64,000 nucleotides of DNA, from UHGV virus genome UHGV-0057547. The stretch is one strand, 5' to 3'. The stretch comes from a virus. A program made the position numbers and the translations under genes. Positions 630 to 64,000 of the stretch are shown in pieces (positions within the stretch are counted from its first letter, which is position 1; every line of letters begins with the position of its first letter). The notes beneath the pieces were generated by a model. It saw nothing but the letters and a program-made list of their open reading frames with translations. It was not told the DNA's origin and did not search any database.

Positions 630-1022
630 GATTAGCTCCCTATATGGAGTGATTCATATAGCAAACTCTCTGAATTGCTTGTAAATCCTAAAGCTAACTA
701 AACTACAACGTGATTGGAAACAATGGGCGTGAATGTGGCGAAAGCAGAAAAAATTAGTTAGATGGTATATGGTTAAATCCTAAGTACTTTTACAATGGAA
801 GTCTAGCAGGTAAGATTCTAAATTACTATAAGTGATATGAATAAACTTCAACGACTATTGAAATAATTGTAAGAACCTTATTACAATTAAAGTAAAGTAC
901 ATTCAAGTGAATGGAAGTAGAGAGTGTCTTATTTAATTAATGTAAGATAATGATATAGTCTCAACGTTTAGCGAAAGCTAAAGAAGTTCATAAGAGAACT
1001 GCATAAGAATAACGAACTTATG
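630..1022 (+). mobile_element. Group I intron A1, with no ORF
   Basis: P GAATTGCTTG lies near 690, Q GTCTAGCAGGTAAGATTCTAAATT near 815, R AACTTCAACGACTAT at 862 and S GATATAGTCTC near 945. The 3' end carries the shared ...CATAAGAGAAC...AACGAAC motif. Confidence 0.6.
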
Positions 1023-2238
1023 TGAAGATATTGCTATGGGGGAAGATTGTGTACTTAGTATGAATTTTTCTAAAGAAGATAGTGAATATAAAGAATATTT
1101 ATCTTCTGTTGAAAAATTAAATAAATTATTAAAATGTCAAAGAGAGGAGGGATTAAGTGTGGATGTAAATAAAGAAACTTCTACTGTTGAAAACAAAGAA
1201 GAATTTGCTGAAGAAAACAAAGATGAAGAAGTTTGTCCTGAATGTGGTGAAAATCCTTGTGTATGCAAAAAAGAAAATCATGCAGTTAATGATGATGAAG
1301 AAGATAAAGCAGATGACAAAAAAGATGATGATAAAGAAGACGATAAAGACAAAGAAGATGAATCTTGTAAAAAGAAAAATCATGCAACTGAAGATAAAGC
1401 AGATGATGATAAAAAAGACGATAAAGCAGATGACGAGGAAGACGACGACAAAGATGATGATAAATCAGATGAAGAAGATGACAAAGATAAAGACAAAGAA
1501 GATGAATCTTGCAAAAAGAAAAATCATACAGTAGAAGATGACAAAGCAGACTTTGGACTTTCTTTAAATAATACATTTAAAGCTATAAGAAAACAATTAG
1601 AATCTTACACTTATGAATATGTGAGCTATTGGGGTGACACTTATACTTGGAGAAAATATTACGTAGTAGAATTAATCCCTGAAGATTCTGTTGTTGTTAT
1701 AGAAGATGAAGAAGAAAATGAATTCTATGGAGTAACTTATTCTATAAATAATGATGATGTTACTTTAGATTTGGATAATAAAGCATTATATATTCAAGAA
1801 TGGAGACCTAAAGAAACTAGTTCTGCTAGATTTGAAAATACTGATAAAAAAGAAAAATATACTGCTAAAGATGAAATGTATCAAGCAGTTGGAAAAGAAT
1901 TAAAAGAACTTAGACAATTTAAAGCTGATATAGAAGCTCAAGAAGAAAAGGCTCAATTCGATGAAAAAGTTAATGCTATCTTATCACAATTTGAATTCAA
2001 TGAAGAAGAAACTTCTGATTTAGTAGAAAAAGTTTATAACAAATCAATTAATTTAGATATGTTTGAAACTTGCTTATTTGCTTTAGAAGCTAAAAAGAAT
2101 AGAGCAGAAAAAGAAAAATTTGCTAAAATGGAAAAAGAAAACAGTTTAAATATAGTTGATTCTAAAAAAGAAGAACCAGCAAAACCAAAATCAAGATTTG
2201 ATTATCTATTAAAAGAATTTGGAAACAAAAATAAATAA
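1023..2238 (+). CDS. Prohead protease/scaffold-like protein, exon 2 (acidic D/E/K repeat tract followed by coiled coil)
   Basis: The frame is open from the intron's 3' end through the annotated 400-aa ORF. The DDEEDKADDKKDD...ESCKKKNH motif repeats three times. The C-terminal coiled coil is typical of scaffolding proteins. Confidence 0.45.
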
Positions 2239-2257
2239 TAAAAGGAGCATGAAAAAC

Positions 2258-2782
2258 ATGGATGTAAAAAATATAGTTAGATTAGACATAATCGAAGGTA
2301 AACCAAGAACATTTGTTCATAGTGAAAACTTACAAAATGGACTTTTCCTAGAAATAGATGGAAAAGTTGAAAATGCTGTACTAGGAGTTGAAGCTGATTA
2401 TGAAGCTTATAAAGTTAAATTAGCTACTGCTGATACTAAAAGAGCTAATTTATTATTCCATTGCAGTGTTGCAAACCAATACGATGAAAGAAAATTACCT
2501 TGCGAATTTGAATTAGAAGCAGGTAGACCAGGAAGAGGATATCAACCAGTTTTAGGTGATATAGTTACAATACCTGAAGCATTAGTTGCTGATACAGTAG
2601 TTGAAAAAGACGAATTAAAATTAGGAGCAGATGGTAAATTAGCTAAAGCTACTACTGGTGACACTGTAATAGCTGTTGTTGAAGCTAAAGAAGACATAGT
2701 AATACCTATGTATAAATATGAATTTGGAAAACAAGGTGTAGACGATACAGTACAAAAATCATTAGTAATAAGATTTGTATAA
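2258..2782 (+). CDS. Hypothetical head protein, possibly a decoration or head-associated protein
   Basis: ATG at 2258 follows the RBS AAAAGGAGCATG. It sits between the scaffold and capsid genes. Confidence 0.35.
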   Translation: MDVKNIVRLDIIEGKPRTFVHSENLQNGLFLEIDGKVENAVLGVEADYEAYKVKLATADTKRANLLFHCSVANQYDERKLPCEFELEAGRPGRGYQPVLGDIVTIPEALVADTVVEKDELKLGADGKLAKATTGDTVIAVVEAKEDIVIPMYKYEFGKQGVDDTVQKSLVIRFV

Positions 2783-2827
2783 AATATAAAATAAATAAAA
2801 TATAAGATAAAAAGGAGAATGAGACGA

Positions 2828-3267
2828 ATGTCAGAATTAAATATAACTGATGTAAGAGATATGGCTTACAGTCTATATAAAGGTAAAACTGCTAATTTCG
2901 ATGCAGAATCTGCAAATGAAGCTATAAAAAATATAATACTTAAAACAGCTGGATGTGAAGATGGTTGGGATATGTATAAATTCATGGATAACAAATACAA
3001 AGTATTTGCTATAATGAGAGAAATATTAACTCCAGTTGTAGCTGAAAATGTTTTAGCTAGATTTGAATCTTGGGTAGACATAGAAGATATAGCTTTAGGT
3101 GATACTAAAGACTTTGAAGTTATGAACCAAGAATTATTTGAAATAGGATATGTAGCTGATGGTACTTCTGAATTAAGAAGACAAAACTTAACTCATGGTA
3201 AAATTACTATGACTGGTTTCCAATTAGGTGCTAAATTATATACTGAATTTGATGACTTTAGAAGGGG
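2828..3267 (+). CDS. Major capsid protein, exon 1
   Basis: RBS AAAGGAG at 2811-2817 lies 10 nt before the ATG at 2828. The ORF-track stop at 3283 is inside the intron. The 3' exon continues the same protein. Confidence 0.55.
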
Positions 3268-4604
3268 TAACTTAGTTTACTAGACAGCCCCCTATGTTTG
3301 TAAAAAGCATAGCAAATCCTTTTAATTGCTGGAAACTCCTAAAGCTCAATTCACTACAACGTAAGGTTAAATCCTAAGCGTGAATGTTACGAAAGTAGAA
3401 AAAAGTAATTGAGATTACCCAAGGTTAAATCCTAAAGGTGAATGAATGGACAATCAGCAGGGAAGATTTTAATTAACACTTAATTTTTTATAAGTTTATG
3501 AGTATAATATAAATAAGTGGAGGTGATGAAAATGACAAGAAAGATTTGGAATGAAATTACAATAAAAGAATTTATAGAAAATGAAACAAATTATAAATTC
3601 ATATCAATGGTTAAATTAAATGGAATGAAATCAATAGTGCTAGTATGGTGCGGTAATACTAATCATAAACCTTATAAAGTTCGATTTGATGCATTTAAAG
3701 GTACTTCTAAAAAAGAAGGAACGAGATGTGAACAATGTAGAAGAGAAAAGGATACTATTTGGACTAAAGATGAAATTATAAAATATGTAGAATCTCAAGA
3801 TTATAAATTTATAAGATTTGTAAAATTTAATAAATATGCAAGTATAATAGAAATTCAATGTAATAAAGGACACGAATCATATGAAACATACTTTAGTAAT
3901 TTCTATAATAATAGAAGATGTTTTCAATGTCATATAATATGGTCTAAAAAAGATATTATTAATTTTATAGAATCTCAAAATTATAAATTTATAAGATTTA
4001 TAACATATGAAAAAAATAATAGTTTAATAGAGATAAAGTGTCCTAAAGGACATATGAATCAAGTTAGATTTAGAAAATTTAAAGAAGGAACTAGATGCAC
4101 AGAATGTAATAAGTCTAAAGGTGAGGAAAAAGTAAAAGATATATTAAAAGAAATGTGTATAGATTTTAAATCACAATACAAATTCAAAGATTGTAAATGT
4201 AAAAAAGAGTTGCCATTTGATTTTTACATACCTTCATTAAATATTGCAATAGAATATGATGGAATACAACATTTTGAAATATTACCACATTGGGGTGGTA
4301 TTGATAAACTTATAGAAACTAAAATACATGATGAAATAAAAACACAATATTGTAAAAGAAAAAGAATAAAACTTATTAGAATTCCTTATTGGGAATTTAA
4401 AAATATAGAAAACATACTTATAAAAGAATTAGTGTTAAATTAGAATAACCTTCAACGACTAGAGCATAAGCTCGTACACTCAAGTGGGTGGAAATGGAGG
4501 ATACCTAGAAATAGGTAGTGATATAGTCTTGTCTCATGTGAAAGCATGAGCAGTTCATAAGAGAACGGATTAGGAGTAACGACCCTAGTCGAAAATAAAC
4601 GCAG
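3268..4604 (+). mobile_element. Group I intron A2 with an endonuclease ORF in P6
   Basis: P AATTGCTGGAAA at 3326, Q AATCAGCAGGG at 3452, R CTTCAACGACTAGAGC at 4452, S GATATAGTCTTGTCTCATGTGAAAGCATGAGCAGTT at 4530. Confidence 0.7.
3517..4443 (+). CDS. Intron-encoded endonuclease with tandem zinc-ribbon modules and a Vsr/DUF559-like PD-(D/E)XK domain
   Basis: Three modules of the form Y[KT][FL]I..........C..GH......F..G..C..C are followed by LPFDFYIPSLNIAIEYDGIQH...IKLIRIPYWEF. The ORF has its own promoter and RBS GTGGAGGTG. Confidence 0.7.
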   Translation: MEVMKMTRKIWNEITIKEFIENETNYKFISMVKLNGMKSIVLVWCGNTNHKPYKVRFDAFKGTSKKEGTRCEQCRREKDTIWTKDEIIKYVESQDYKFIRFVKFNKYASIIEIQCNKGHESYETYFSNFYNNRRCFQCHIIWSKKDIINFIESQNYKFIRFITYEKNNSLIEIKCPKGHMNQVRFRKFKEGTRCTECNKSKGEEKVKDILKEMCIDFKSQYKFKDCKCKKELPFDFYIPSLNIAIEYDGIQHFEILPHWGGIDKLIETKIHDEIKTQYCKRKRIKLIRIPYWEFKNIENILIKELVLN

Positions 4605-5169: not shown

Positions 5170-5185
5170 TTTATAAATAGTAAAA

Positions 5186-8783: not shown

Positions 8784-10127
8784 TAATTTGCTCCCTATGT
8801 AAGTAAATTGCATAGCAAATCCTTTTAATTGCTGGAAACTCCTAAAGCCTTGCAAACCACAACGCAACTTGAAAAAGTAAACGTGATGGTGACGAAAGTA
8901 GAAAAAATTGTAAGGATTACCCAAGGTTAAATCCTAAAGGTGAATGAATGGACAATCAGCAGGTAAGATTTATATTTATTTTACTTTACTTTTAATAATT
9001 AATTTCGTATAATTTAAGTAAATGGAGGTGGTAGATATAAAATGGACAGAAGATAGAATTAAAGAATATGTTGAAAATCAAGGATATACTTATATAAAAA
9101 GAATTGAAGGAAAAGCAAGTATGTCGATTATAGAAGTTTGGTGTGGAAATCTTAATCATAAATCTTATAGGGTTATGTTTAAAAATTTTAAAGGTAATAA
9201 AGCAAAAAAACCAACAAGATGCCCATATTGTAGTAAAAATAAAAAATTAACCATTGAAGAAGTAAGAGTATTTGTTGAAAAATATGATTTTAGTTTATTA
9301 TCTGTAGAATATATTAATAATAGAACTCCATTAACACTACAATGTAAAAATGGACATATATTTTCAATAAGATTAGATAATTTTAAACAAAGTTTAAAAT
9401 GTCCAATGTGTTATAGACATTATGGTGCTTACACCGAAGATGAAGTTAAGCAATACCTTGAAAGTTTTGGTTATGAATTACTGAATAAATATATAGATAT
9501 ACATAAAAAAATAATAATTAAATGCCCTAAAGGTCATATTTATAAAACTTCATTTAATAGTTTTAAAAATAATGGAACTAGATGTTCTATTTGTAGAAAA
9601 TCAAAAGGTGAAGAAAAAATATCTAAAACATTAAAAGAATTAAAAATAAAATTCATAAGTCAATTTGTATTCGATGATTGTCAATATAAAACATATCTTC
9701 CATTTGATTTTTATTTACCTGAATATAATATATTAATTGAATACGATGGGATTCAACACTATGAACCTGTAGACTTTGGTGGTAAAGGAAATGAATGGGC
9801 AAATAAACAACTCGAATTAACAAAAATAAAAGACAATATAAAAACACAATATTGTGAAAATAATAATATAAAACTTATAAGAATATCTTATTGGGAATTT
9901 GATAGCATAGAAAATATATTAAGTAAAGAGTTAAAAGTAAGAAAATAAATATGAATAAACTTCAACGACTATTCCGTAAGGAAGTAAAGCCACAAGCTAT
10001 TGGTGGAAGAAATGGAGGATACCTAGAAATAGGTAGTGATATAGTCTGTTCTCATGTGAAAGCATGAGCAGTTTATATTGAATGAGTATAAACGATGTAT
10101 GTGTAGCGAACATATGTGAACACAAAG
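8784..10127 (+). mobile_element. Group I intron A3 with an endonuclease ORF
   Basis: P at 8826, Q at 8956 and R at 9963. S GATATAGTCTGTTCTCATGTGAAAGCATGAGCAGTT near 10043. The 3' end is GTGTAGCGAAC...CACAAAG. Confidence 0.65.
9022..9948 (+). CDS. Intron-encoded zinc-ribbon / Vsr-DUF559-like endonuclease (paralog)
   Basis: LPFDFYLPEYNILIEYDGIQHYE...IKLIRISYWEF, preceded by repeated C..C / GH..C modules. Confidence 0.7.
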   Translation: MEVVDIKWTEDRIKEYVENQGYTYIKRIEGKASMSIIEVWCGNLNHKSYRVMFKNFKGNKAKKPTRCPYCSKNKKLTIEEVRVFVEKYDFSLLSVEYINNRTPLTLQCKNGHIFSIRLDNFKQSLKCPMCYRHYGAYTEDEVKQYLESFGYELLNKYIDIHKKIIIKCPKGHIYKTSFNSFKNNGTRCSICRKSKGEEKISKTLKELKIKFISQFVFDDCQYKTYLPFDFYLPEYNILIEYDGIQHYEPVDFGGKGNEWANKQLELTKIKDNIKTQYCENNNIKLIRISYWEFDSIENILSKELKVRK

Positions 10128-10180
10128 ATAACTATATATCATTCTCAAGTGGTAGAACAGGAACATTAACAATGAACTGT
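10128..10180 (+). CDS. Putative mini-exon of the tail tube gene
   Basis: Open frame D-NYISFSSGRTGTLTMNCN lies between two intron cores. Both boundaries are uncertain. Confidence 0.25.
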
Positions 10181-10557
10181 AACTAGTACAGCGTATGTAA
10201 AGAAATTTACATAGGACACAACCTTAAAACCAGTAACTCCTAAAGCTCAACAACTACAACAAAGGATAGAATCAGAAACCTTTGTGAATGTGAGGAAACT
10301 CTGAAACAATAGTTGAGATGATATATGGCGAGAGCCTAAGTATTGTAACAATGGATGTTTGGTCGCCAAACTTAGAAATAAGAAGGTCAAACGACTATGA
10401 TTTGAAAGAATCATAAAGCCTCAAGCGAATGGAGGAAGAAATGGGTTGCCCCTAACAGATAATGCTGAGGGTGAAGAAATAGTCTAGTCACTCTAGGAAA
10501 CTAGGTGCTTAGAATTGACTAAGGTTTATAAGTTGCGATTATAAATAAATATTAACG
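10181..10557 (+). mobile_element. Group I intron A4 (divergent, no ORF)
   Basis: 5' region GTATGTAAAGAAATTTACATAGGACACAAC, R GGTCAAACGACTATGA at 10383, S GAAGAAATAGTCTAGTC. The 3' motif AAGGTTTATAAGTTGCGATTATAAATAAA matches the 3' end of intron A7. Confidence 0.5.
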
Positions 10558-18205: not shown

Positions 18206-18238
18206 GCTTATGGATAATAACAATAGAAATTACGCTGG
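18206..18238 (+). CDS. TMP 33-nt mini-exon (LMDNNNRNYAG)
   Basis: Exactly 11 codons lie between the B1 3' G (AGATAAAAAG|) and the A5 5' splice site GCTGGT|. The putative P1 is CUGGU with AGCCAG, including a U-G pair. Confidence 0.4.
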
Positions 18239-18620
18239 TTAGAATTAGCCAGGCTATATGGAGACATATAGTACAAATCTCTTTTGAATTGCTGGAAAGG
18301 ACTTAGAGCCTATTGAACTACAACGTAGATGGAAACATCAAACGTGAATGTTAAAAAATCAATAGGATTGTTCAATCAGCAGGTAAAATTCTAAGTGATA
18401 ATTTATCATATGAATAAACTTCAACGACTATCCCTTGGATTTGCTAATTTAGTAAATCAATAGGAGTACGGCTCAAGCGATTGGAGTGGGTGAGAATCCC
18501 TTAAATGGAAGTGGAAGAGGACTTATAAAAGTTCAAGATATAGTCTACTCTCGTAGGAAATCTACGAGCAGTCCTTTTTTTGGACGGTATGTATATAGCG
18601 AATACATATGAATATTAAGG
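18239..18620 (+). mobile_element. Group I intron A5, no ORF
   Basis: P2 hairpin CTATATGGAGACATATAG, P AATTGCTGGAAAGG at 18287, Q AATCAGCAGGTAAAATTCTAAG at 18375, R at 18421, S AAGATATAGTCTACTC at 18541. The 3' end is ...ATGAATATTAAGG. Confidence 0.7.
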
Positions 18621-20151: not shown

Positions 20152-20286
20152 CTCCACGATAACAAATCGAAAACTCAAGCCGGTGTATTCCAAGCATTAA
20201 TGACAGGTTGGGAAAGAGTTCGTCAATATCAAAAAGAATACAATGAAGGTTGGATGATAGGTTCAGCTCAAAGAGAGAAACAACAT
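20152..20286 (+). CDS. TMP exon 4
   Basis: Open frame LHDNKSKTQAGVFQALMTGWERVRQYQKEYNEGWMIGSAQREKQH. It ends at a codon boundary on U, before intron sequence TCTCCGTATGTACAG. Confidence 0.4.
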
Positions 20287-20658
20287 TCTCCGTATGTACA
20301 GAAATGTGCATAGGACATAGATTTAATTGCAGGTAATCCCTAAAGCTCTACACCACAATATATCTGAAAAGAATATATGAAGGTACGAAAGTAGAAAAAA
20401 CGTAGAGATTCTCATATGGTTAAATCCTAAGTGAGAGTAACAATGGGTGTTCATGCAGGTAAGATTCTAAGTGATAATTTATCATATGAATAAACTTCAA
20501 CGACTAGAATGCAAATTCGTAGGGTGTAAGCGATTGACACTCGAAAAGGTCTACCCTTAATATTAAGGTGAAGAAATAGTCTACTCTTATAGGAAACTAT
20601 AAGCAGTTTTCATATAAAGAAAACGGATTAAGTGTAGCGAACTTAATTGAATAAATGG
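20287..20658 (+). mobile_element. Group I intron A6, no ORF
   Basis: P variant AATTGCAGGTAATCCC at 20327, Q GTTCATGCAGGTAAGATTCTAAG at 20460, R at 20497, S GAAGAAATAGTCTACTC. The 3' end is GTGTAGCGAACTTAATTGAATAAATGG. Confidence 0.65.
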
Positions 20659-26600: not shown

Positions 26601-27270
26601 AGTTGATGAATATAATGATTATAAAGATTCAATAGATGATGCTAGTAAATCAATTGAAGAAGAAACTAATAAACAACTTGAATTAAAAGATTCAATGATG
26701 GAAATTAGAGAAGAAATGAGAAAACTTAGAGATGATGCGTGGGTTAAAACTTATGAAAATGGTCTAAAAGTTATTCAAAATCGTATTGATACAATAGATT
26801 CTTTATTAGATTTGGAAGATGAAAATCAATTTGGTTTACTAAATCAAAAAATTGAAGAATATAAGAATTTAACTAAGGCAACTGAAGATAGTTTAGCTTA
26901 TCAAAAACATAGAAAAGTTACTATGCAAAAAACATTAATTGATTACGGATTCACTATTAATGATGATGGTACAATAGATGGAACTGCTAATAAATTAGAA
27001 CAACTTAAAAATACATTATCTGAAACTGAATTTGGTATAGTAAGTGATACATTAGAAGATTATTTTGATACTGCTTTAGATACAATTCCTGAATTAGAAA
27101 GAGAATTAATAAAATATCAAAAAGATTTAAAAGATATACAAAATACTAAACTAGAAAAAACTAAAACTATTGAAGAAAAAATTACAGAAATATATAATGA
27201 TGAAATAGATAAAAGAACTAAAAAGATACAAGAAGAAGCAGAAGCACAAACTAAAGCACTAAATAAGGCT
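20659..27270 (+). CDS. TMP exon 5, about 2,204 aa. It carries internal tandem repeats and a K/S/T-rich tract.
   Basis: In frame from the intron's 3' G. Sequence NEIYMDSIAGKF... The ORF-track TTG start at 20647 lies inside the intron's 3' end. Confidence 0.55.
23290..23560 (+). repeat. Three tandem coding repeats in the TMP of about 60 nt each
   Basis: The repeated peptide is (V/A)EGDTSGAEKVEKKV(E/D)EVDGKEGKAK. Confidence 0.6.
24090..24620 (+). repeat. About eight tandem coding repeats in the TMP
   Basis: The repeat is ...TVTINCQDNATPKIN.V.K.GNKS... with degenerate copies. Confidence 0.55.
25240..25610 (+). repeat. Low-complexity K/S/T-rich coding tract in the TMP
   Basis: KKSSSKKKSTSKKKSSSKKK... 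runs for about 120 aa. Confidence 0.6.
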
Positions 27271-27498
27271 AAATTTAGCCTGGTTGTCGAGTAATCGGCT
27301 TCAAAAATAATAGATTTAATTGCAGGTAATTCCTAAAGCCTTACACCACAAGCACAGAGAAATCATGTGTTGAAGGTACGAAAGTAGAAAAAACGTAAGG
27401 ATGGATATAAGGTTAAATCCTAAGTATCCAAACATATTTATATATGTTAAAATGGATGTTCATGCAGGTAAGATTCTAAATTAAATTATTTTAAATAT

Positions 27499-27541
27499 TT
27501 GACTTTTAATAAGATAAATTGTATAATATAAGTAAAGAGAG
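27499..27541 (+). promoter_or_regulatory. Sigma70-like promoter and RBS driving the intron-encoded HNH ORF
   Basis: TTGACT-17 nt-TATAAT with the TGTATAAT extended form, then AGAGAGGTGG as RBS. Confidence 0.5.
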
Positions 27542-28444
27542 GTGGAATATATGGGTCAAAAATTGAATAGAAAAAAAATAGAAAAATATATAAATCAATA
27601 TAATTATGAAGTTTTATATTGTAAACATGATAAAAATAAATATAAATGGAAACTCATTTTAATGTGCCCTAATTTTCATATTTTCAAAATGGATTTTGAT
27701 AAATTTCAAAATAATAGAAGATGCCCTTGTTGTAATGGTTCTAAGTATAATGAAGATTTTGTTAGAGAATATATGTTAAATAATGGAGATATACTTTTAT
27801 CTCATTATCATAATGGAAATGAAAAATTAAAAGTAATGTGTAAATATGGTCATATTTTTTATCCAATATTTAATAATTACTATAATAAAAATTCAAGATG
27901 TCCATATTGTAATGGGAATATAACTATGGAGCATAAAAGTTTTATTAATAGATTAAATACAATTAACCCTAACATAGAAATATTGGGTGAATATAAAAAT
28001 AGTCATACTAAAATTAAATGTAAGTGTAAAATAGATGGGCATGAATGGGAGGCAAAGCCTACTAATCTATTAGGAAGTAAAAATGCAAAACCAACTGGAT
28101 GTCCAAAGTGTTATAGACGAACTTATCGAGGTGAAACACATCCTTTATTTGACCATAGTAAAACAAAAGAAGATAGAGAAGATGATAGAAGTTATTTTGA
28201 ATATAATGAATGGAGAACTAAATGTTTTGAGAGAGATAAATATACTTGTCAAGTTACCGGACAACAAGGTGGAAGATTAGTAGTACATCATTTATATTCT
28301 TATAATAAATATTATTGTTTAAGAACGACATTGGAAAATGGTATAACAATATCAGAAGAAATACATAAAAAATTCCATTCTATTTATGGAAATGGAAATA
28401 ATACATTCGAACAATGGGAAGAATTTATTAAAAGTTTAAAATAA
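27542..28444 (+). CDS. Intron-encoded HNH endonuclease with N-terminal zinc-ribbon modules
   Basis: The zinc-ribbon modules resemble those of the Vsr-like family. The C-terminus carries CQVTGQQGGRLVVHHLYSYNKYYCLRTTLENGITISEEIHKKFH. Confidence 0.65.
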   Translation: MEYMGQKLNRKKIEKYINQYNYEVLYCKHDKNKYKWKLILMCPNFHIFKMDFDKFQNNRRCPCCNGSKYNEDFVREYMLNNGDILLSHYHNGNEKLKVMCKYGHIFYPIFNNYYNKNSRCPYCNGNITMEHKSFINRLNTINPNIEILGEYKNSHTKIKCKCKIDGHEWEAKPTNLLGSKNAKPTGCPKCYRRTYRGETHPLFDHSKTKEDREDDRSYFEYNEWRTKCFERDKYTCQVTGQQGGRLVVHHLYSYNKYYCLRTTLENGITISEEIHKKFHSIYGNGNNTFEQWEEFIKSLK

Positions 28445-28642
28445 TTTAACATGAATAAACTTCAACGACTATCCCTTGGATTTACTAATTTAGTAAATCA
28501 ATAGGAGTACGGCTCAAGTGATTGGAGTGGGTGAAATCCCCTTAAATGGAAAAGGTCTACTCCTACAATTGTAGGATGAAGAAATAGTCTTGACACGTTT
28601 TGAAAGAAAGTGCTTAGAATTAACTAAGGTTTATAAAATGCG

Positions 28643-29006
28643 ATTATAAATAAAATTTTTCGTAAAGAAGCTTATCAAAGATGGAGAGACGATGTTGACT
28701 ATAAAGATGATTATAACAAACAATTAAAAACTGTTGAAGATTTACAAAAGAAAATAGAAATAGCGAAACGTGATGATAGTTTAACTGGACAAAAACGTTT
28801 AGCAGATTTGATGAAAGAATTAAAAGAAGAACAAGAAAATCTTGAAGATATGGTTCAAGACAAAATTAACAGTGACGTGAATAATATGTTTGATGACCAA
28901 ATAGACAAAATAGAAGAAAATTCTGATGAAGAAGTTAAGAATTTGGAAAAAACATGGTCAGAAAGCAAAATAGCTGAAATGGTTAAACAAGCACTTGATA
29001 CTGGAG
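28643..29006 (+). CDS. TMP exon 6
   Basis: IINKIFRKEAYQRWRDDVDYKDD...KQALDTG. The frame is continuous with exon 5 when the intron ends at the G of ATGCG. Confidence 0.45.
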
Positions 29007-29217
29007 TAAATTAGCTCCTTTTACTAAGTAATTAGTATTAAAACTCATTGAATTGCTGGAACTTCCTAAAGCTAACTAAACTACAATATGGCTAGAAATG
29101 GCGAATATGAATGTGGCGAAAGCAGAAAAAATTAGTTAGATATTCATATGGTTAAATCCTAAGTGAATATAAATGGATAATCAGCAGGTAAGTGCCTAAA
29201 TTTATTTTATAAAATAA

Positions 29218-29268
29218 TTGACTTTTAATAAGATAAAACGTATAATATAAGTAAAGAAAGGGGTTGAG
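29218..29268 (+). promoter_or_regulatory. Sigma70-like promoter and RBS driving an intron-encoded endonuclease
   Basis: TTGACTTTTAATAAGATAAAACGTATAATATAAGTAAAGAAAGGGG is nearly identical to the cassette at 27499. Confidence 0.5.
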
Positions 29269-30360: not shown

Positions 30361-30508
30361 GGCAAAACTTCAACGACTATATATACTAGTAGTCTAGTTA
30401 GTGGTGAGCATCCTTATGGGATGATGATATAGTCTACTCTCATGTGAAAGCATGAGCAGTTCATAAGAGAACGGTATAAGGTTTAACGAACTTTATATGA
30501 ATATTAAG

Positions 30509-30910
30509 GTGTTTACAGATATTGATGGAAATATCAAAACTCTTCAAACAGCATTAATGGATTTTGCTAATACAAGTTCTGATTATTTTGGAGTTATGGG
30601 TGATTCATTAAAGAAAGAATTGTTAAATAATCTTAATGTAGCATTAGAGACTATGAAAGAACTTCAAAAAATGTCAGATAATTATACTGCTCCTAATATA
30701 GATTATAGCAATACAGTACTTCCAAAAGATAGTGGTATTAATACTTCTCCACAAGTTTCTAGTAATGTTGAAACTAATAATATTACAATTGGAGATACTA
30801 ATATTACAATTCAAGGTGGTGCAGATGATGTTACTTTAGGAAAAGTAGATGAAATGTTAAAAGATTACAAAGCAAGCATTTGTAAGGAAATTGTTAAAAA
30901 TATGAAATAA
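30509..30910 (+). CDS. TMP terminal exon
   Basis: VFTDIDGNIKTLQTALMDF... The ORF-track ATG at 30497 is intronic sequence ATGAATATTAAG. Confidence 0.45.
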   Translation: MFTDIDGNIKTLQTALMDFANTSSDYFGVMGDSLKKELLNNLNVALETMKELQKMSDNYTAPNIDYSNTVLPKDSGINTSPQVSSNVETNNITIGDTNITIQGGADDVTLGKVDEMLKDYKASICKEIVKNMK

Positions 30911-55138: not shown

Positions 55139-55463
55139 TAATTTTAGTCCCTATGTAAAGAAATTTATATAGCAAACCCTTTGAATTGCTGGAAAACCCT
55201 TAGAGCCTTAATACTACAATAGAGAGGAAACTACTCTATGAAAGTTTGAAAAGTTTAAGGATTGGGTAATCAGCAGGTAAGATTCTAAATTACTATAAGT
55301 AATATGAATAAACTTCAACGACTAAGTATCCTAGTAGTCTAGGTAGTGGAGGGCATCCCTTCATGGGATGATGATATAGTCTACTCTCATGTGAAAGCAT
55401 GAGCAGTTTTCTTTGAGTAAGAAAACGGATAGAATAATAGCGATATTCTATTGAATATAAAGG
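55139..55463 (+). mobile_element. Group I intron A9, no ORF
   Basis: P GAATTGCTGGAAAACCC at 55185, Q AATCAGCAGGTAAGATTCTAAATT at 55268, R at 55313, S GATGATATAGTCTACTCTCATGTGAAAGCATGAGCAGTT. The 3' end is ...GAATATAAAGG. Confidence 0.65.
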
Positions 55464-55586: not shown

Positions 55587-56747
55587 GTAACAAATTAAGC
55601 TCCCTATGTAAGTAAATTGCATAGCAAACCCTTTGAATTGCTTGTAATCCCTAAAGTCAACTAAACTACAACGTGGCTAGAAATGGCGAACGTGAATGTG
55701 GCGAAAGCAGAAAAAATTAGTTGAATGGTATATGGTTAAACCCTAAGTACTTTTGTAATGGGTGTCTAGCAGGTAAGATTCTAAATTAAATTATAAAATT
55801 AAGTTTATTTTTTATAAAAATATAAGTATAATATAAATAGGGGGTGAATATTATGGGTAAACGTAAAATGAGTGAAGAACATAAAAGGAAACGATTAGAT
55901 ATAGTTAAAAAGAAATGTGATGAATTAGGCTATACATTATTGACAAAAGAGTATATTAACAATAAAACAAAATTAGAAATTGTATGTGATAAAGGACATT
56001 TATGGACACCAACTTTTGATAATTTCATTATGAAAGATAGAAGATGTAGAAAATGTGCTGATAAACAAAATGGTATAAATCAAAGGTTATCTTGGGAAGA
56101 AGTGCTAAATAGAGTAGAACCTTATGGATATAAAATGATTAGCAATAAAGAAGATTATATCAATCAAGATTCTAAACTCAAAGCCTTATGTCCAAATGGA
56201 CATATTTATAAATTTAGTATAAATAATTTTCAACGAGGTAAAAGATGTTCTCAATGTAAAATGTCCGGTGGCGAACAGGAAATATCAAGAATATTGAATA
56301 AATATTCTATAGAATATAAATTCAATTATAAATTCAATACGAATAATATAATAAAAACAAAGCCTTTTGATTTTAAAATATTAAATAAAAACATATGTAT
56401 TGAATATGATGGACAACAACATTATCATTTTCAATTTGATAATAATCTTTTAGATTTAATGAATAGAAAACATATAGATACTATAAAAACAAAATATTGC
56501 GAAGACAATAATATAAAACTTATTAGAATTCCTTATTGGGAATTTGATAATATAGAAAATATACTTATAAAAGAACTTAATTTAAAATAATTTAATATGA
56601 ATAAACTTCAACGACTATATATACTAGTAGTCTAGTTAGTGGAGGGCATCCCTTCATGGGATGATGATATAGTCTACTCTCATATGAAAGTATGAGCAGT
56701 TCATAAGAGAACGGTATAAAGTTTAACGAACTTTATATGAATATTAG
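55587..56747 (+). mobile_element. Group I intron A10 with an endonuclease ORF
   Basis: The 5' sequence is GTAACAAATTAAGCTCCCTATGTAAGTAAATTGCATAGC. P GAATTGCTTG at 55648, Q GTCTAGCAGGTAAGATTCTAAATT at 55768, R at 56603. The 3' end is ...ATGAATATTAG. Confidence 0.7.
55844..56590 (+). CDS. Intron-encoded zinc-ribbon / Vsr-DUF559-like endonuclease (paralog)
   Basis: KPFDFKILNKNICIEYDGQQHYH...IKLIRIPYWEF. Confidence 0.7.
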   Translation: MNIMGKRKMSEEHKRKRLDIVKKKCDELGYTLLTKEYINNKTKLEIVCDKGHLWTPTFDNFIMKDRRCRKCADKQNGINQRLSWEEVLNRVEPYGYKMISNKEDYINQDSKLKALCPNGHIYKFSINNFQRGKRCSQCKMSGGEQEISRILNKYSIEYKFNYKFNTNNIIKTKPFDFKILNKNICIEYDGQQHYHFQFDNNLLDLMNRKHIDTIKTKYCEDNNIKLIRIPYWEFDNIENILIKELNLK

Positions 56748-56846
56748 GACATTTCACAAAACGCCTCTAATTTATTTGAATGGTTATATTACACTGATTA
56801 TGCTAAAGAATTTTGTAGAAATATACCTCATTTAACAGCTTGTGGT
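56748..56846 (+). CDS. Metallophosphoesterase exon 3 (33 codons)
   Basis: DISQNASNLFEWLYYTDYAKEFCRNIPHLTACG ends in GUGGU. The putative IGS GCCAC lies in the intron and includes a U-G pair. Confidence 0.45.
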
Positions 56847-57161
56847 AAATGTTAGCCACCTTTACATAGTGATATGTAATGAAAAACTCATTGAATTGCT
56901 GGGAAGCCCTAACGTAAAGACGAGGGTAATCAGCAGGGAAGTCTCTTTAAAATGGGAAACCTTCAACGACTATCCCTTGGATGTTGAAATACATCAATAG
57001 GAGTACGGCTCAAGTGATTGGAGTGGGTGAAATTCCCTTAAATGGAAGTGGTGAGCATCTCAATGGAGATGAAGATATAGTCTACTCTCATATGAAAGTA
57101 TGAGCAGTTTTGTATATATACAAAACGGATTAAGTGTAGCGAACTTAATTGAATATAAAGG
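56847..57161 (+). mobile_element. Group I intron A11, no ORF, with a short P5
   Basis: P AATTGCTGGGAAGCC, Q AATCAGCAGGG, R at 56963, S GAAGATATAGTCTACTCTCATATGAAAGTATGAGCAGTT. The 3' end is GTGTAGCGAACTTAATTGAATATAAAGG. Confidence 0.65.
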
Positions 57162-57563: not shown

Positions 57564-57936
57564 CAAGTTGACCTGGTTGTCGAGTAATCGGCTTCAAAAA
57601 TTACAGATTTAATTGCAGGTAATTCCTAAAGCCTTACACCACAATAGAGGGGGAAACTACTCTATGATGGTATGAAAGTAGAAAAAACGTAAGGATTCTT
57701 ATATGGTTAAACCCTAAGTAAGAGTTAACAATGGATGTTCATGCAGGTAAGATTCTAAGTTGCTATAAGCGATATGAATAAACTTCAACGACTAGAGCAT
57801 AAGCTCGTACACTCAAGCGAGTGGAAAAGGTCTGTCCCTATATAAATAGGGTAAAGAAATAGTCTAATATCCTAATGAAAGTTAGGGCTAGAGTAATTCT
57901 AGGCTTGTAAGTAGCGATTACAAGAACAATATAATG
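57564..57936 (+). mobile_element. Group I intron A12, no ORF. Its 5' 110 nt are nearly identical to A7.
   Basis: CAAGTTGACCTGGTTGTCGAGTAATCGGCTTCAAAAATTACAGATTTAATTGCAGGTAATTCC. R at 57783, S AAAGAAATAGTCTAAT. It ends at ...ATATAATG. Confidence 0.6.
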
Positions 57937-58548: not shown

Positions 58549-58561
58549 AGGGGATGGTTAA

Positions 58562-61282
58562 ATGTCTATTAAAAGATGTATTATTAAAGACGGAAAAGAA
58601 CAATGGATAGAAGTTGCTGGAGGAAGTAGTTCTATAAATACAGGTGAAGCAATAAATGTTAGTATAAGAGATAATGATAATCTATTTGAAAGTCAAAACG
58701 TAGAAGGGGCTTTAACAGAAATATCTTATGAAATACAAAATGTAGACAATGTTTTAACCAATCATATAAACAATTCTGCTATACATGGTGGAGGTGGAGG
58801 TGGTGGTAGTATGCCTACCATCACTTCTGATTTTACTATAAATAAATCAGATGGTATAACTGAAATAGAAATACCTATATTTTTTAATTCACCTAACTTA
58901 GGAGAAGGTTTAGCTTATGTATTAGTTAATAATGTTGAGGTAGGTACACAAACAGTTCAACAAGGTAATAATACAATTATAGTTCCTCCTTTGGGAGCTG
59001 GTAAAAATATAATTATATCAATCTATGTAAAAGATAGAGCAGGACTAATATCTAACCAAATAAACTGGACAGTAACAAGTGGTGGTATAACATTAACAAT
59101 GCTTACTGACACAAGTGCAGATTATGGTATTACAAGTAGAATAGTTTTATCATATACAATATCTTCTATGACTGGTGAAGATATTGAAGTTTTCTTTGAT
59201 GTAGATGGTACAACATATAAAACAAAAGGTACAAATGGATATAATACTTATGAAATTACAGGATTAGATATAGGAGTGCATGTTATAACTTATTGGGCAA
59301 TATCAGCTGAATATGAAACAAAACACAGCACATTCACATTAATAGTAGTAAGTAAAGACCAAGTAATAATATCAACTCAATTTGATTCAACTGTTGAATA
59401 TGAAAGTGGTATACCAATTAGTATACCATATAGATTATCAGTAGATAGAGATGAAGATTTTACTGTAAATTTATATATAAATAATGTTTTAGATAAAACT
59501 ATAGTAACTAGACCAGCTTCATTGTATTGGACTATATCATCATTAGATGCAGGTGATTATACTTTAAAAATAGAAGCGAAAAATGAATCTTTAGGAATGA
59601 GTAATTATATAGAATTTAAATGTAAAGTTATTCAAGGTGAATATACTAGAATACAACCAGTAATAGATAGTTCTTTAATAGCTTGGTTTGATGCAACAGA
59701 TAGAACTAATAATGATAATGATAGAGATGTTTGGACAGATAAAATAAAAGGTAATAAAGGTTATCTTCATAATTTCAACTATGGTTCTAATGGATGGTTA
59801 AAACAAACTGGTAAAGAAATTAGTGAACTTGTTATGAATGGTACTGCTTATGTTGAAATTGATATGACACCTTTTGCTGATAACTTTAAAAATGGTGGTG
59901 TAATTGAATTAGTATTTAAAACTAGAGATGTTGGTAATAGTAACGCTAGGGTTTTAGATATAACTGATACATTGTCACCATATAAAGGTGTTTATATAGA
60001 TACAAGAGAAGCATACTTATCTACTTCATCACAATCTATAAATGGTTCTATAGGTGAAGATGAATATATACAAGTGTTATATAATATAGATAGAATTAAT
60101 AAATATTGTCATATAGTTGTTAATGGAGTAATAATAAAATCTTGTAAATTAGCTGATAGTGGTAGTGGTACTTCTGCTATATTAGAATCATTGGCTCACA
60201 CTAAAAAGATTTATTTAAACTGCCAAAAAGGAACTGATAATTTTGGTTCTTGTGAAATAACACATTTAAGAATATATGATAGAAACTTTACTTTTGATGA
60301 AATATTACAAAACTTTTTATCAAATTATGATGACTTAAAAGTACAAAAAAGTAAATCGGATTTTAACAATCCATTAAAAAATATAATGCCTGTTATGAAT
60401 ATAACAGCTGACCAAAAACGTTTAGATGATATGACAGATACAAATAGAGTTGAAGTTGCTATGACATATACATCACCTAATGCTGATTTATATGGACAAA
60501 CTTTAACAAATGCTAGTAACTGCTTAATGTATTGGCAAGGTACATCTTCTATAGCATATAATATTAAAAACTATAATATATTACTTAGAGATGAAAATAG
60601 ACAACCAATAATGTATAGTCCTTTTAAAAATTGTATACCACAAGATTTATTTTGTTTAAAAGCAAACTTAATGGAATCTACTAATGCTCACAACGTAGGT
60701 ATAGCTGAATATGTTCATGATTACCTGTATACAACCTTAAATCCAGCACAAAAAATAGATAGTAAAGCTAGTAGAACAGTACAAGGTTTCCCTATATTGC
60801 TTTATATAAATGGTGAACTACAAGGAGTATATGACTTCAACTTAGATAGATATTCAACAAAAGCATTTGGATATGAATTAGATGAATATAAAGATACTTG
60901 TAGAGTATATGAAGTTTCAGCAAATACTAATAAAACTGCTGGTGCATTTATTCCTTGGACTAAAGAAACAGGTATGGATGAATGGACATGGTATAAAAAT
61001 GACTTTGTTGGTATATATCCTGAACGTATACAAAATTCAATTAATGATGATTTCTCTGCATTAAAAACACTAATATCATTTGTGCATGATTCTACCGATG
61101 AAGTTTTTACTACAAATTTTGCCACATATTTTGATAAGGAATCAGTAATAAGATATTATATTTTAGTAATGGTTTTGGGAATGGTAGACTCACTTGGTAA
61201 AAATGCTAAGTTAGTAACATTTGATGGTGTTAAATGGGAAATGCAATTCTATGACTGTGATACGGCTTTTGGGTTAAAATAA
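58562..61282 (+). CDS. CotH-like tail protein, exon 1. An N-terminal Ig-like domain follows a poly-Gly linker. The 3' boundary is uncertain.
   Basis: HGGGGGGGS linker. The C-terminal region ...VMVLGMVDSLGKNAKLVTFDGVKWEMQFYDCDTAFG resembles the CotH D.D..FG region. Confidence 0.4.
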   Translation: MSIKRCIIKDGKEQWIEVAGGSSSINTGEAINVSIRDNDNLFESQNVEGALTEISYEIQNVDNVLTNHINNSAIHGGGGGGGSMPTITSDFTINKSDGITEIEIPIFFNSPNLGEGLAYVLVNNVEVGTQTVQQGNNTIIVPPLGAGKNIIISIYVKDRAGLISNQINWTVTSGGITLTMLTDTSADYGITSRIVLSYTISSMTGEDIEVFFDVDGTTYKTKGTNGYNTYEITGLDIGVHVITYWAISAEYETKHSTFTLIVVSKDQVIISTQFDSTVEYESGIPISIPYRLSVDRDEDFTVNLYINNVLDKTIVTRPASLYWTISSLDAGDYTLKIEAKNESLGMSNYIEFKCKVIQGEYTRIQPVIDSSLIAWFDATDRTNNDNDRDVWTDKIKGNKGYLHNFNYGSNGWLKQTGKEISELVMNGTAYVEIDMTPFADNFKNGGVIELVFKTRDVGNSNARVLDITDTLSPYKGVYIDTREAYLSTSSQSINGSIGEDEYIQVLYNIDRINKYCHIVVNGVIIKSCKLADSGSGTSAILESLAHTKKIYLNCQKGTDNFGSCEITHLRIYDRNFTFDEILQNFLSNYDDLKVQKSKSDFNNPLKNIMPVMNITADQKRLDDMTDTNRVEVAMTYTSPNADLYGQTLTNASNCLMYWQGTSSIAYNIKNYNILLRDENRQPIMYSPFKNCIPQDLFCLKANLMESTNAHNVGIAEYVHDYLYTTLNPAQKIDSKASRTVQGFPILLYINGELQGVYDFNLDRYSTKAFGYELDEYKDTCRVYEVSANTNKTAGAFIPWTKETGMDEWTWYKNDFVGIYPERIQNSINDDFSALKTLISFVHDSTDEVFTTNFATYFDKESVIRYYILVMVLGMVDSLGKNAKLVTFDGVKWEMQFYDCDTAFGLK

Positions 61283-61354
61283 TAGCTCAAATAAAACCTT
61301 TTCTGATATACGGCGAAACTCCTGGAGAGGACAACGCCTTCCAACTATTATTTA

Positions 61355-61421
61355 TTGACAAATTATAAAAATATATGTATAATATAAATATAAAGAGAAT
61401 ATATATATAGGAGGTGATTAT
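61355..61421 (+). promoter_or_regulatory. Sigma70-like promoter and RBS for the C1 endonuclease
   Basis: TTGACA-17-TGTATAAT and GGAGGTG. Confidence 0.45.
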
Positions 61422-62279
61422 GTGTGTAAGAAAGAGAATAGTTTTGCACAATGGTTTATAAATGAATTTGGATTAGAAAAATTTAACACTGTTATAAATC
61501 ATGAAAAAAATAAATCATTAGGCATAGATATTTGGAACGTATCAAAGAGAAGTGGTTGTAAAATTTGGTTTAAATGTGAAAATAAAGATTATCACGAATA
61601 TCAACTTACAGCCGATAAATATTTTATTGGTAATAGATGTAAATATTGTGGTAGAACAAAATATGTTCATCCAAGAGATTCGTTAGGTCAATATATAATT
61701 GATAACTTTGGAGAAGATTTTTTAAATAGAGTATGGTCAACAAAAAATAAAAAATCGCCTTTTGAATATACTATTGGAACTGAGAAGAAAGTTTGGTTTA
61801 ATTGTATCAATGGTATTCATGAACCAAAATTAAGACAAATAAAAAATTCTGTTGCTAACGATTTTAAATGCCCATTTTGTTTAAAAAATTGCCATATTTC
61901 AAAATTAGAAAAGAAAGTGTTTTTATATTTAAAAAGCATTTTTAAAAACATAAATAGAGAAAGCAATTGTAATTTAATACCCAAAAATCCTAAAACTAAT
62001 AAAATAATGCCTTATGATAATGAGATAGTGGATATAAAATTAATAATAGAAGTACATGGAAAACAGCATTATGAATTATCAGGAGATACAAGTGCATGGT
62101 TACATGGATTATCACCAAAAGAGTATCTTCATAAAAGAAAATTGTATGATAGGTATAAAAGAATGTACGCAAAGTCCAATGGTTATTATTATTTAGAAAT
62201 ACCTTATTGGGCTGATGATTTAGAAGAAACTTGGAAAATTATGATTGATGATAAAATAAAAGAAATATTAAGTCAATAA
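61422..62279 (+). CDS. Divergent zinc-ribbon / PD-(D/E)XK-like endonuclease inside C1
   Basis: C..C modules and IIEVHGKQHYE...LEIPYW. Promoter TTGACA-17-TGTATAAT and RBS GGAGGTG lie upstream. Confidence 0.5.
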   Translation: MCKKENSFAQWFINEFGLEKFNTVINHEKNKSLGIDIWNVSKRSGCKIWFKCENKDYHEYQLTADKYFIGNRCKYCGRTKYVHPRDSLGQYIIDNFGEDFLNRVWSTKNKKSPFEYTIGTEKKVWFNCINGIHEPKLRQIKNSVANDFKCPFCLKNCHISKLEKKVFLYLKSIFKNINRESNCNLIPKNPKTNKIMPYDNEIVDIKLIIEVHGKQHYELSGDTSAWLHGLSPKEYLHKRKLYDRYKRMYAKSNGYYYLEIPYWADDLEETWKIMIDDKIKEILSQ

Positions 62280-62448
62280 ATAATAGGGGAACAACGACTA
62301 AGCGAAAAGGGCTTGTAAAACAAGTATGCAATAGTCTGAACTCACACTATAACTCAAAATATTAAGAAATGTGAGAAGAGGGGTCATCGGTAATCAGACC
62401 GATAGTTTAAAATTATTTCATATAAAATAAAAGAGGGGTGATAAAATA

Positions 62449-63201
62449 ATGAAGAAAAGAAATTATAATCATTTAATAGGTAAAAAAATTGGTTCAATAA
62501 TTGTACTTGGAATAAATGAAGAAGAAAGTGAAATAAAAAAAAGATGTATTTTAGATATAAAATGTGATTGTGGAGAATTAAAATGCGTTAGAGCAAGTGA
62601 TGTTGAAAGTGGAAATGTTAAGACTTGTGGAAAACGTAAAATTCATAAAATACAATATTATGATAATATAGAAGGTCAAAAATTTGGAAAATTAACAGCT
62701 ATTAAATATACATCTACTATAAATAAACATGCTTATTGGTTATGTGAATGTGAGTGTGGCAATTATTGTATTGTACAATCTTCAAACTTAAAAACAAATC
62801 ATACTACTTCATGTGGTTGTAATAAAATAACAAATACTAATGGAACATTTATAAAACATTTAAGAAATATCCTAAAACCAATAACACTTAAAAAGATAGA
62901 AGATGCTGATTATAAATGTGAAATTTTAAATAAAGAATGTGAAATACAAGTGCATCACATAATACCTTTTAAAGATTTATATGAAAAAACATTAGCTGAC
63001 TTGAATATTGACTTCAGAAAAGAATTAAGTCAATATAATATGGATGAAATAAAAAGAATAGATGATTATTTTTTAAAATTAAACTCGACAGATATTCTTA
63101 TTGTTATTTCTTCTGAACTCCACATGTCTTTTCATAAAAAATATGGATATAAAAATTTTAAAAAAGAAGATTTTGATGAATTTATAAATAGTGTGAAATA
63201 A
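62449..63201 (+). CDS. HNH endonuclease inside C1
   Basis: CEILNKECEIQVHHIIPF...SSELHMSFHKKYG, with cysteine-rich N-terminal modules. RBS AAGAGGGGTG. Confidence 0.55.
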   Translation: MKKRNYNHLIGKKIGSIIVLGINEEESEIKKRCILDIKCDCGELKCVRASDVESGNVKTCGKRKIHKIQYYDNIEGQKFGKLTAIKYTSTINKHAYWLCECECGNYCIVQSSNLKTNHTTSCGCNKITNTNGTFIKHLRNILKPITLKKIEDADYKCEILNKECEIQVHHIIPFKDLYEKTLADLNIDFRKELSQYNMDEIKRIDDYFLKLNSTDILIVISSELHMSFHKKYGYKNFKKEDFDEFINSVK

Positions 63202-63280
63202 TTTTAACAAGAAGAACCTCTCTCGCTAGACATATTATGTCTAGTCAGTAGCCTTATATGGTGAAAGTAACAGAATGTAG

Positions 63281-63738
63281 ATAATACAGGTGCGTTAAAA
63301 TATGATGTGGATATAGAAGTTGACCCTGAACATTTCAATACTGCTGATTCAGTATTATGGACTAGAATTAGAGATTTATTCCATAATGATATAGTTGCTG
63401 AATATAATAATATGAGAAATCAAAATTTAACACCTGAAAAAATATATGAAAGCGTATTTACAAATCAAATAGAAAAAATACCTGAAAGTCAATATAATCT
63501 TAGTACTCAAAAGAAATATCTTGATACAGGTGAATATATTATGATGTCTAATGGTAATAGATATTATAATTTAAAACGTTGGATAAAAGAAAGATTTATA
63601 TATTGTGATACTTTATTTGATTACACTCCTACAACTGCTAGTTATGTAACTGTACGTTCAGGAGTAGAAGGTAAGGCTTATTTGGATATAGAAACTTATT
63701 ATCCTATGTATATAACTATAGAGTGGAGGAAACAATAT
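63281..63738 (+). CDS. CotH-like protein, downstream exon. It ends at a conserved 5' splice site.
   Basis: Open frame NTGALKYDVDIEVDPEHFNT... The exon ends ...EWRKQY at AAACAATAT|TCCTCGTATGTAGAG, which matches the A6 junction. Confidence 0.4.
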
Positions 63739-64000
63739 TCCTCGTATGTAGAGAAATCTGCATAGGACACAACTTTAATTGCAGGTAATGGGTAAAGCTC
63801 TACACCACAAGCATAGAGAAATCATGTGTTGAAGGTACGAAAGTAGAAAAAACGTAGAGATTCTCATATGGTTAAATCCTAAGTGAGAAGTGATTAAATT
63901 CACACAATCCCTGTTCATGCAGGTAAGATTCTAAGTGATAATTTATCATATGAATAAACTTCAACGACTATCCTGGAAAGATAGGTTAAAATCCCTATCA
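63739..64000 (+). mobile_element. Group I intron A13, truncated by the window end
   Basis: P TTAATTGCAGGTAATGGG at 63785, Q GTTCATGCAGGTAAGATTCTAAG at 63915, R AACTTCAACGACTATCC at 63961. Confidence 0.6.

Follow-up and report, generated by a model that had tools for sequence, protein, structure and literature searches.

The stretch of DNA considered here, 64,000 nt of the virus genome UHGV-0057547 (hereafter the window), is part of a ~204.5-kb contig that was recovered from many human-gut samples. It has a GC content of ~28%, all of its genes lie on the + strand, the genetic code is standard and no inteins were seen in it. Six structural genes, encoding a YonD-like head protein, the major capsid protein, a tube-like protein, the tape measure, a metallophosphatase tail protein and a CotH-like protein, are broken into 22 pieces by 16 insertions, which are very probably group I introns, all on the + strand. 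Thirteen belong to one family (I1-I12 and B1), two to a second class (class C; C1 and C2) and one is a 2-kb element (D), and together they take up ~13.8 kb, or 21.6% of the window. A first-pass annotation made from the letters of the window had counted about 16 group I intron-like insertions and had listed capsid, tail tube, tape measure, phosphatase-domain and CotH-like genes as interrupted; the count stands (13 pairs of profile matches, two class C copies and D), as do all five genes, to which the YonD-like head gene is added. The window was compared with relatives 93-99% identical to it that were taken from IMG/VR and metagenomes (L-numbered loci), and these differ from it mainly by clean insertions or deletions that coincide with candidate introns or their open reading frames (ORFs). 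The candidate introns, their flanking exons and the evidence for each are as follows, with ↓ marking a junction here and below.

I1, 629..1033, + strand: family A, no ORF, YonD-like head gene (exons 55-628 and 1034-2238); nhmmer matches to both halves, frame closure, phiCD211, and phrog_3313 across the junction.
I2, 3268..4601, + strand: family A, ORF 3517-4443 in the P6 loop, major capsid gene (exons 2819-3267 and 4602-5169); intron-less L006 and L009, phrog_4088.
I3, 8784..10127, + strand: family A, ORF 9022-9948, tube-like virion gene (exon 1, 8639-8783); nhmmer, frame closure, phrog_2729 and phiCD211 continuous.
B1, 10180..10557, + strand: divergent family member, no ORF, tube-like gene, after a 52-nt exon (10128-10179) and before exon 10558-10912; nhmmer, phiCD211 ungapped.
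C1, 17163..18226, + strand: class C, ORF 17293-18000 in the P5 region, tape measure, after exon 12034-17162; intron-less L021, U.G pair at the 5′ splice site (TGGT/GCCG), terminal G.
I4, 18240..18620, + strand: family A, no ORF, tape measure, with a 13-nt exon (18227-18239) between C1 and I4; absent from L021, nhmmer. The alternative boundaries 18239-18619 give the same protein.
C2, 19005..20169, + strand: class C, LAGLIDADG ORF 19100-19882, tape measure, after exon 18621-19004; intron-less L023, U.G pair (AGGT/GTCT).
I5, 20278..20658, + strand: family A′, no ORF, tape measure, after exon 20170-20277; intron-less alleles at seven loci.
I6, 27270..28662, + strand: family A′, ORF 27542-28444, tape measure, after exon 20659-27269; intron-less L018 and L023, phrog_10871.
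I7, 29007..30509, + strand: family A, ORF 29269-30360, tape measure (exons 28663-29006 and 30510-30910); RF00028 match of the L020 ortholog, frame closure, phrog_10871.
I8, 55139..55463, + strand: family A, no ORF, metallophosphatase tail gene, after exon 53756-55138; RF00028, 95 bits; intron-less L011, L012 and L014.
I9, 55588..56748, + strand: family A, ORF 55844-56590, splits the metal-binding motif G↓D; I9-less L031, Pfam Metallophos continuous.
I10, 56847..57161, + strand: family A, no ORF, splits G↓NND; RF00028, 98 bits; I10-less L030.
I11, 57564..57936, + strand: family A′, no ORF, splits LCG↓HNH; RF00028, 53 bits; absent from L013, L014, L030 and L031.
D, 61275..63277, + strand: divergent, ORFs 61422-62279 (in P6) and 62449-63201 (in P9), CotH-like gene, after exon 58562-61274; P1 with U.G pair, terminal G, three alleles.
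I12, 63730..64000, + strand: family A′, no ORF, extends beyond the window as far as 64192 on the same contig (continuation read from L001) and joins exon 63278-63729 to a 1,042-aa exon; open frame, phrog_14959.

The upstream exon's reading frame is closed by a stop codon within each insert. The core blocks that had been reported as recurring, and a P2 hairpin said to be shared, were both recovered: the R block TTCAACGACTA is found 12 times without a mismatch, always on the + strand (expected number, 0.54), the P block AATTGCWGG has 10, all on the + strand, the S block GAWATAGTC has 12 on that strand, and the hairpin CTATGTAAGTAAATTGCATAG occurs exactly twice. Profile hidden Markov models of the 5′ and 3′ halves, run with nhmmer, found exactly 13 ordered pairs in the window, all on the + strand, and no others. 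Their E-values, 1e-10 to 1e-50, make the other family members homologous to the copies that match the Rfam group I intron model RF00028; the divergent B1 is included, with E-values of 7e-31 and 1.5e-15, a P4 of ACCAG/TTGGT and a place in the family consensus fold. The Rfam scan proposed in the first-pass annotation was positive for part of the set: in the window RF00028 passes its gathering score for I8, I10 and I11, and the remaining copies fall below detection. The 3′ half of I9 scores 30 bits. In relatives the model also matches the ORF-less ortholog of I7 (82 bits, L020) and an I5-like copy (60 bits). Most of the misses arise because the model cannot bridge ORFs of 0.7-1.1 kb in the P6 loop. 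No group II Rfam matches and no reverse transcriptase or Hint domains were found in the window, nor any IS200/IS605-type transposase genes as in an IStron, the intron ORFs matching endonuclease families only.

Five more introns were seen directly upstream of window position 1 on the same contig (L028 1-8965), four of them in tandem with very short exons between them. Three are of family A, with 5′ halves at 126, 2823 and 6862, 3′ halves at 1323, 4191 and 8008 and an ORF inside each pair, and two carry the class C signature GTAACGCATAG (at 2565 and 4656; one with a LAGLIDADG ORF). Rfam detected none of the five. The window and the adjoining upstream DNA hold at least 21 introns in 73 kb.

Every junction in the window is supported by an intron-less strain allele, by an uninterrupted homolog in the Clostridioides phage phiCD211 (LN681537) or by a continuous profile match. 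With junctions set from intron-less alleles and frame arithmetic, all six host genes translate without a stop codon once the introns are removed. A terminal G is compatible with frame closure in 16 of 16 introns, and it is confirmed by intron-less alleles with precise junctions for ten (I2, I4, I5, I6, I8, I9, I10, I11, C1 and C2). The alleles lacking I2 (L006, L009) read GGT AGA and encode the same RRG↓RTD, and those lacking I8 (L011, L012, L014) read ACT ACT GAC CAA CAG and, despite synonymous changes next to the site, likewise encode WTTD↓QQGF. I11 is missing from L013 and L014, where GGT CAT AAC CAT was read, and also from L030 and L031; I5-less alleles (L015, L017, L019, L020, L021, L023, L024) read AGA GAA AAT GAA, and I6-less alleles (L018, L023) AAA GCC AAA GAA (NKAKE). 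L021 lacks both C1 and I4 and encodes MDLVNYAGNNF, while L023 lacks C2 and encodes SEAIAG↓KTQAG. L031, without I9, reads GGA GAC ATT, the ligation product of G↓...G↓, and L030, without I10, reads GGT AAT AAT, the canonical U↓...G↓ product. For I1 the frame closes solely as GGA G↓T...TTG↓CT; the junction is ungapped in phiCD211 (PG↓AMGEDC vs. KGAMGSNC) and phrog_3313 matches across it in one stretch. The uninterrupted phiCD211 genes align without gaps across eight junctions (I1, I2, I3, B1, C1, I4, C2 and I5).

The exon ORFs are not independent genes, an outcome that the first-pass annotation had set against its own proposal: the halves of a gene align to consecutive sections of one profile, and after splicing the protein matches that profile in one stretch. 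The spliced capsid protein covers positions 4-331 of the 332 in phrog_4088 at 294 bits, against 109 and 137 bits for the separate halves, and across the I2 junction tblastn matches uninterrupted capsid genes in one piece. Pfam Metallophos rises above its cutoff solely after splicing, as a single stretch over three junctions; phrog_10871 spans I6 and I7, Pfam CotH spans D, and phrog_14959 spans D and I12. Exon differences between strains are mostly synonymous, also in exons of 41 and 32 codons (8:1 and 8:2). The tape-measure gene has six introns and seven exons, the shortest of 13 nt, and encodes 4,330 aa when spliced, which would imply a tail of ~0.6 micrometres at ~0.15 nm per residue as a rough estimate. 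The spliced tape measure (window 12034-30910) contains a long Lys/Ser/Thr-rich low-complexity tract. In the metallophosphatase gene each of the four introns interrupts a conserved motif of the domain (TTD↓QQ, G↓D, G↓NND and G↓HNH); homing endonucleases are known to target conserved sequence.

Folding of the RNA points in the same direction. RNAalifold applied to ten ORF-less family A/B introns recovered P3, P4, P5, P6/P6a, P8 and P9.2, with compensatory changes in 27 of 39 pairs. P3 appears in at least six different complementary pairs across the family and is specific to its cognate, with a mean of 7.15 bp vs. 5.33 for non-cognate combinations, only 6 of 150 of which reach the cognate mean. 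The same cognate vs. non-cognate tests of P4, P6 and P1 gave no discrimination, the family members being too similar and AT-rich. Judged from these predicted, covarying helices, the family A/B core is clearly of group I type.

Class C occurs at C1 and C2 in the window, at a third site in relatives (C3) and as an unannotated copy in phiCD211. The guide differs among these copies so as to fit four different exon ends, each through a U.G pair at the splice site, and the consensus fold has compensatory changes in 27 of 56 pairs. A long-range helix GAGGGCA/TGCCCTC crosses an invariant GCATA/TATGC pairing, with a P4-P6-like block between the crossing helices followed by a P8 hairpin and a purine-rich joiner; the crossing helices would correspond to the P3/P7 topology of group I introns. 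Class C also has an ORF-less form of C1 (L005, L007, L020, L024), and the ORF of C2 matches LAGLIDADG_3 at 1.6e-12. Element D has a 7-bp P1 (TTTGGGT/GCTCAAA) with a U.G pair, ends in G, and shares the P7 motif CAACGACTA...ATAGTC with family A. Its P3, P6, P7, P8 and P9 covary across three alleles, and its form in L010 is ~270 nt long without an ORF, whereas the window copy has two ORFs in two different loops. In phiCD211, the unannotated class C intron lies at 27253-27540 (L025), directly upstream of the annotated Intron_gpI, so that the tape measure there has two tandem introns; the annotated one has apparent true bounds of ~27574-27842 (ATT GGT↓TAAC...TTAAAG↓ATA AAC).

Ten introns had been thought to carry endonuclease ORFs. 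Such ORFs are indeed present, but there are nine of them in eight introns, the tenth endonuclease (30988-31695) standing free between genes. Seven of the nine belong to one endonuclease family (phrog_559/9084/7140), one is of the LAGLIDADG type and one of the HNH type. Eight are preceded by a conserved promoter, TTGAC-N17-TGTATAATATAA, and a ribosome-binding site. The promoter-leader is near-identical among these eight, TTGAC-N17-TGTATAATATAAGTAA followed by a Shine-Dalgarno sequence (3480-3516, 8990-9021, 17240-17292, 19050-19099, 27495-27541, 29225-29268, 55800-55843 and 61355-61421), which suggests that the ORF and the signals for its expression move together as one cassette. The free-standing gene at 30988-31695, an HNH/endonuclease VII gene between the tape-measure and Dit genes, is absent from five of five relatives by a clean deletion of ~690 nt and therefore appears to be a mobile endonuclease outside introns.

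Presence and absence of introns and of their ORFs vary independently among strains. I9 is found without its ORF in L010-L014, I10 has a 918-nt ORF insert in L011, L012 and L014, and in relatives introns also occupy five tape-measure sites at which the window has none. A copy of I5, 94.5% identical, lies at the site equivalent to window ~28789 in L020 and L015, with a different P1 (L020). The introns are mosaic, as in I9, which resembles I1 most in its 5′ half (82%) but I7 (91%) and I8 (90%) in its 3′ half, and synonymous exon differences cluster at the I2, I8 and I11 sites. Since the relatives differ in intron and ORF content, the elements appear to be mobile, and they can be counted among mobile introns with putative homing endonucleases. 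The suggestion that several subfamilies have invaded repeatedly and spread within the genome is borne out by the strain polymorphism, the re-targeted I5 copy and the mosaic introns.

In group I introns, choice of the 5′ splice site is regarded as depending critically on a U as the final base of the upstream exon, and the characterised Twort introns follow U. This feature appears to fail for most of family A. When sites are placed by fixing the terminal G and then applying reading frames and intron-less alleles, the 5′ splice site falls after G in I1, I2, I3, I5, I7, I9, B1 and I12 and after C in I6; it falls after U only in I8, I10, I11, C1, C2 and D, with I4 ambiguous. The U forms a U.G pair with the guide in I8, I10, C1, C2 and D, as well as in C3 and the phiCD211 introns, and a U-A pair in I11. 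Several observations speak for the non-U placement. The I9-less allele is the G↓...G↓ product and differs from both alternatives, an extra intron of L023 at window ~17144 restores the Ala codon GCA only under the G-terminal, non-U model, a cut after T in the L020 copy at site 28789 would create a stop codon, the Ala at the I1 junction is conserved in phiCD211, and the 9 nt that precede the I5 splice site contain no T. Three other placements were tried and rejected. Cutting after the T of GGAGT with a terminal G causes frameshifts in I1, I2, I3, I7 and I9. A 3′ splice site one base after the G gives a stop codon in the L020 copy at site 28789 and Val in place of a conserved Ala or Asp at three junctions, and it conflicts with the I9-less allele. 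An upstream U (ACT↓GGAGT) would delete residues that are present in intron-less alleles.

The non-U splice sites of family A are thus apparent, and the limited library that could be searched yielded no description of a group I intron class that inserts after G. We see roughly even chances that family A is a lineage freed from the U requirement, in which cleavage would occur at one constant position in P1, immediately ahead of the intron's initial TAA/AAA, and would not depend on the last exon pair (G-C, C-G, G.U, U.G or U-A). If so, such a lineage could colonise almost any sequence by few changes of guide bases, which would explain at least 21 introns in 73 kb and ten occupied tape-measure sites across strains. 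If the non-U sites are real, a near-universal splice-site rule of group I introns is challenged, with relevance to ribozyme engineering.

Some of the findings weigh against reading all 16 insertions as group I introns. RF00028 does not match the ORF-bearing copies, nor I1, I4, I5, B1, C1, C2 or D. P7 is invariant inside each class, so that it has support from covariation in D only. In about 9 of the 13 family A/B introns the upstream exon does not end in U, so that their splicing could be weak or aided by proteins, and we infer splicing at these junctions from DNA and protein comparison. One could accordingly take C1, C2 and D for other insertions, for example endonuclease cassettes with unrelated flanking RNA that are removed by another route, and sensitive Rfam scans indeed detected nothing even in the ORF-less versions of C1 and D. 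Such an origin is very unlikely in view of the guide that pairs with the exon end through U.G, the final G of all three, the adaptation of the class C guide to four different exon contexts, and a helix order from P1 to P9 that is matched in C1, C2 and D, crossing P3/P7 pairs included, with covariation. Intron-less alleles moreover give exact excision points for C1 and C2, and D has its P7 motif in common with family A.

The non-U 5′ splice sites of most family A introns and the low or absent Rfam scores of most copies would also fit splicing-dead relics in the pseudogenes of a decaying or defective phage. The restoration of six genes to perfect open frames, purifying selection on the exons, and intron cores that are conserved and covarying make this highly improbable, all the more as near-complete contigs of 173-204 kb are present in many samples and the interrupted genes are essential virion genes. 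Mis-joins through repeated intron-like sequence could have inflated the density, and one 36-kb contig (L003, ENA ERZ501597 NODE_2) does join window 57064-63970 to 20277-27818 through sequence common to I12 and I5. Whether this contig is a chimera produced in assembly or a genuine recombinant, its jump from I12 to I5 means that such introns can mislead assemblers. For the window itself, an artefact has next to no probability: independent assemblies that differ in sample and source (L001, L002, L004) match it completely or at 99.99% identity, the introns are just 50-91% identical to one another, and the frame is restored at every junction.

As group I introns, the elements would be transcribed within the host gene and fold into a core with P1 and its internal guide, P3-P9 and the P3/P7 pseudoknot. 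An external guanosine would cut the 5′ splice site and the freed exon end would attack behind the final G of the intron, so that the exons are joined into a continuous mRNA. Endonuclease genes occupy peripheral loops of half of the introns (P6, the P5 region, P1/P2 or P9), and most of them have a sigma-70-like promoter and a ribosome-binding site of their own. During mixed infection the endonuclease may cut an intron-less allele, repair then copying the intron in (homing), and a new site could be colonised once a copy gains a P1 guide matching the new exon. Catalysis, endonuclease activity and this route of spread are proposed on the strength of sequence comparison.

The phage is an SPbeta-like siphovirus of the human gut, as judged from Pfam labels on genes of the contig (YonD_N, YonB, YomX, YomW, YomV, YomN) and from a capsid protein that is 35-37% identical to its counterparts in the Clostridioides phages phiCD211 and LIBA2945. 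A crAss-like origin was considered from weak megablast matches, limited to a 150-nt tail-fibre segment, and was ruled out by the capsid, tape measure, Dit and Yon/Yom proteins, which lead to SPbeta-like/phiCD211-like siphoviruses. Other variable features of the window include a 260-aa in-frame segment near the C-terminus of a 2,120-aa Big_13/GH16 tail protein (48288-49069), which is missing in L010, and an extra insertion of ~600 nt at the tape-measure start (~12030) in L009 and L023 that resembles an added small gene and not an intron. Exon 2 of the YonD-like gene has, at 1700-2000, a long acidic, repetitive insert rich in Asp, Glu and Lys with repeated CKKKNH motifs, which is not in the phiCD211 homolog alignment.

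These results raise the known upper limit of viral intron load, with ~1 intron per 4 kb, 22% of the DNA, six introns in one gene and an exon of 13 nt. They also indicate that standard annotation overlooks most of these introns (Rfam finds 3 of 16 in the window and 0 of 5 just upstream), and therefore genes in such phages are mis-called as fragments. The strain set offers natural with/without pairs for nearly every site, which will be useful for studies of homing, ORF gain or loss and re-targeting, and the presence of class C in the cultured C. difficile phage phiCD211 makes direct testing feasible.

The usual load of one to three introns per phage genome, against which the first-pass annotation had measured the window, is outdated. 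Zeta-group crAss-like phages have up to 14 introns per genome (Yutin et al., 2021, PMC7886860). They belong to a different virus order, are podovirus-like, infect Bacteroidetes, often have recoded stops, and their introns were recognised via endonuclease domains (PMC7886860). The SPbeta-like siphovirus studied here, by contrast, uses the standard code, and its 64-kb window holds 16 introns, six of which interrupt a single gene; over 73 kb the count is at least 21. Jug jumbo gut phages average 18.5 introns per 360-402 kb, and splicing was confirmed by metatranscriptome reads for 37 of 76 predictions (PMC12880540). There too group I introns and endonucleases fragment essential genes, but at ~1 intron per 20 kb against ~1 per 4 kb here, in phages of Bacteroides/Phocaeicola and mostly in replication and packaging genes. 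In B. cereus-group prophages, IA1/IA2 introns interrupt tape-measure (three sites), tail-tube and terminase genes, start with TAA or TAG, and adapt to new sites by changes in P1 (Tourasse and Kolsto, 2008, PMC2504315). Those prophages have one or few introns each and insertion after U is stressed (PMC2504315), while most family A copies here follow G or C. Family A aligns at 70-79% over the core with introns of Staphylococcus Twort/K-like and Bacillus AR9/PBS1 myophages, and AR9/PBS1-type records have 5-8 places that match it; these myophages have several introns per 130-250 kb genome compared with 16 per 64 kb here. phiCD211, among the closest cultured relatives, has its tape measure split where L020 and L021 have introns, and with one annotated and one unannotated intron its load is far below that of this phage. 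The kind of element is thus already known; what is new is the density, which is above any published phage case that we found, together with a second class that Rfam does not detect, an intron with two ORFs, micro-exons and the apparent non-U splice sites.

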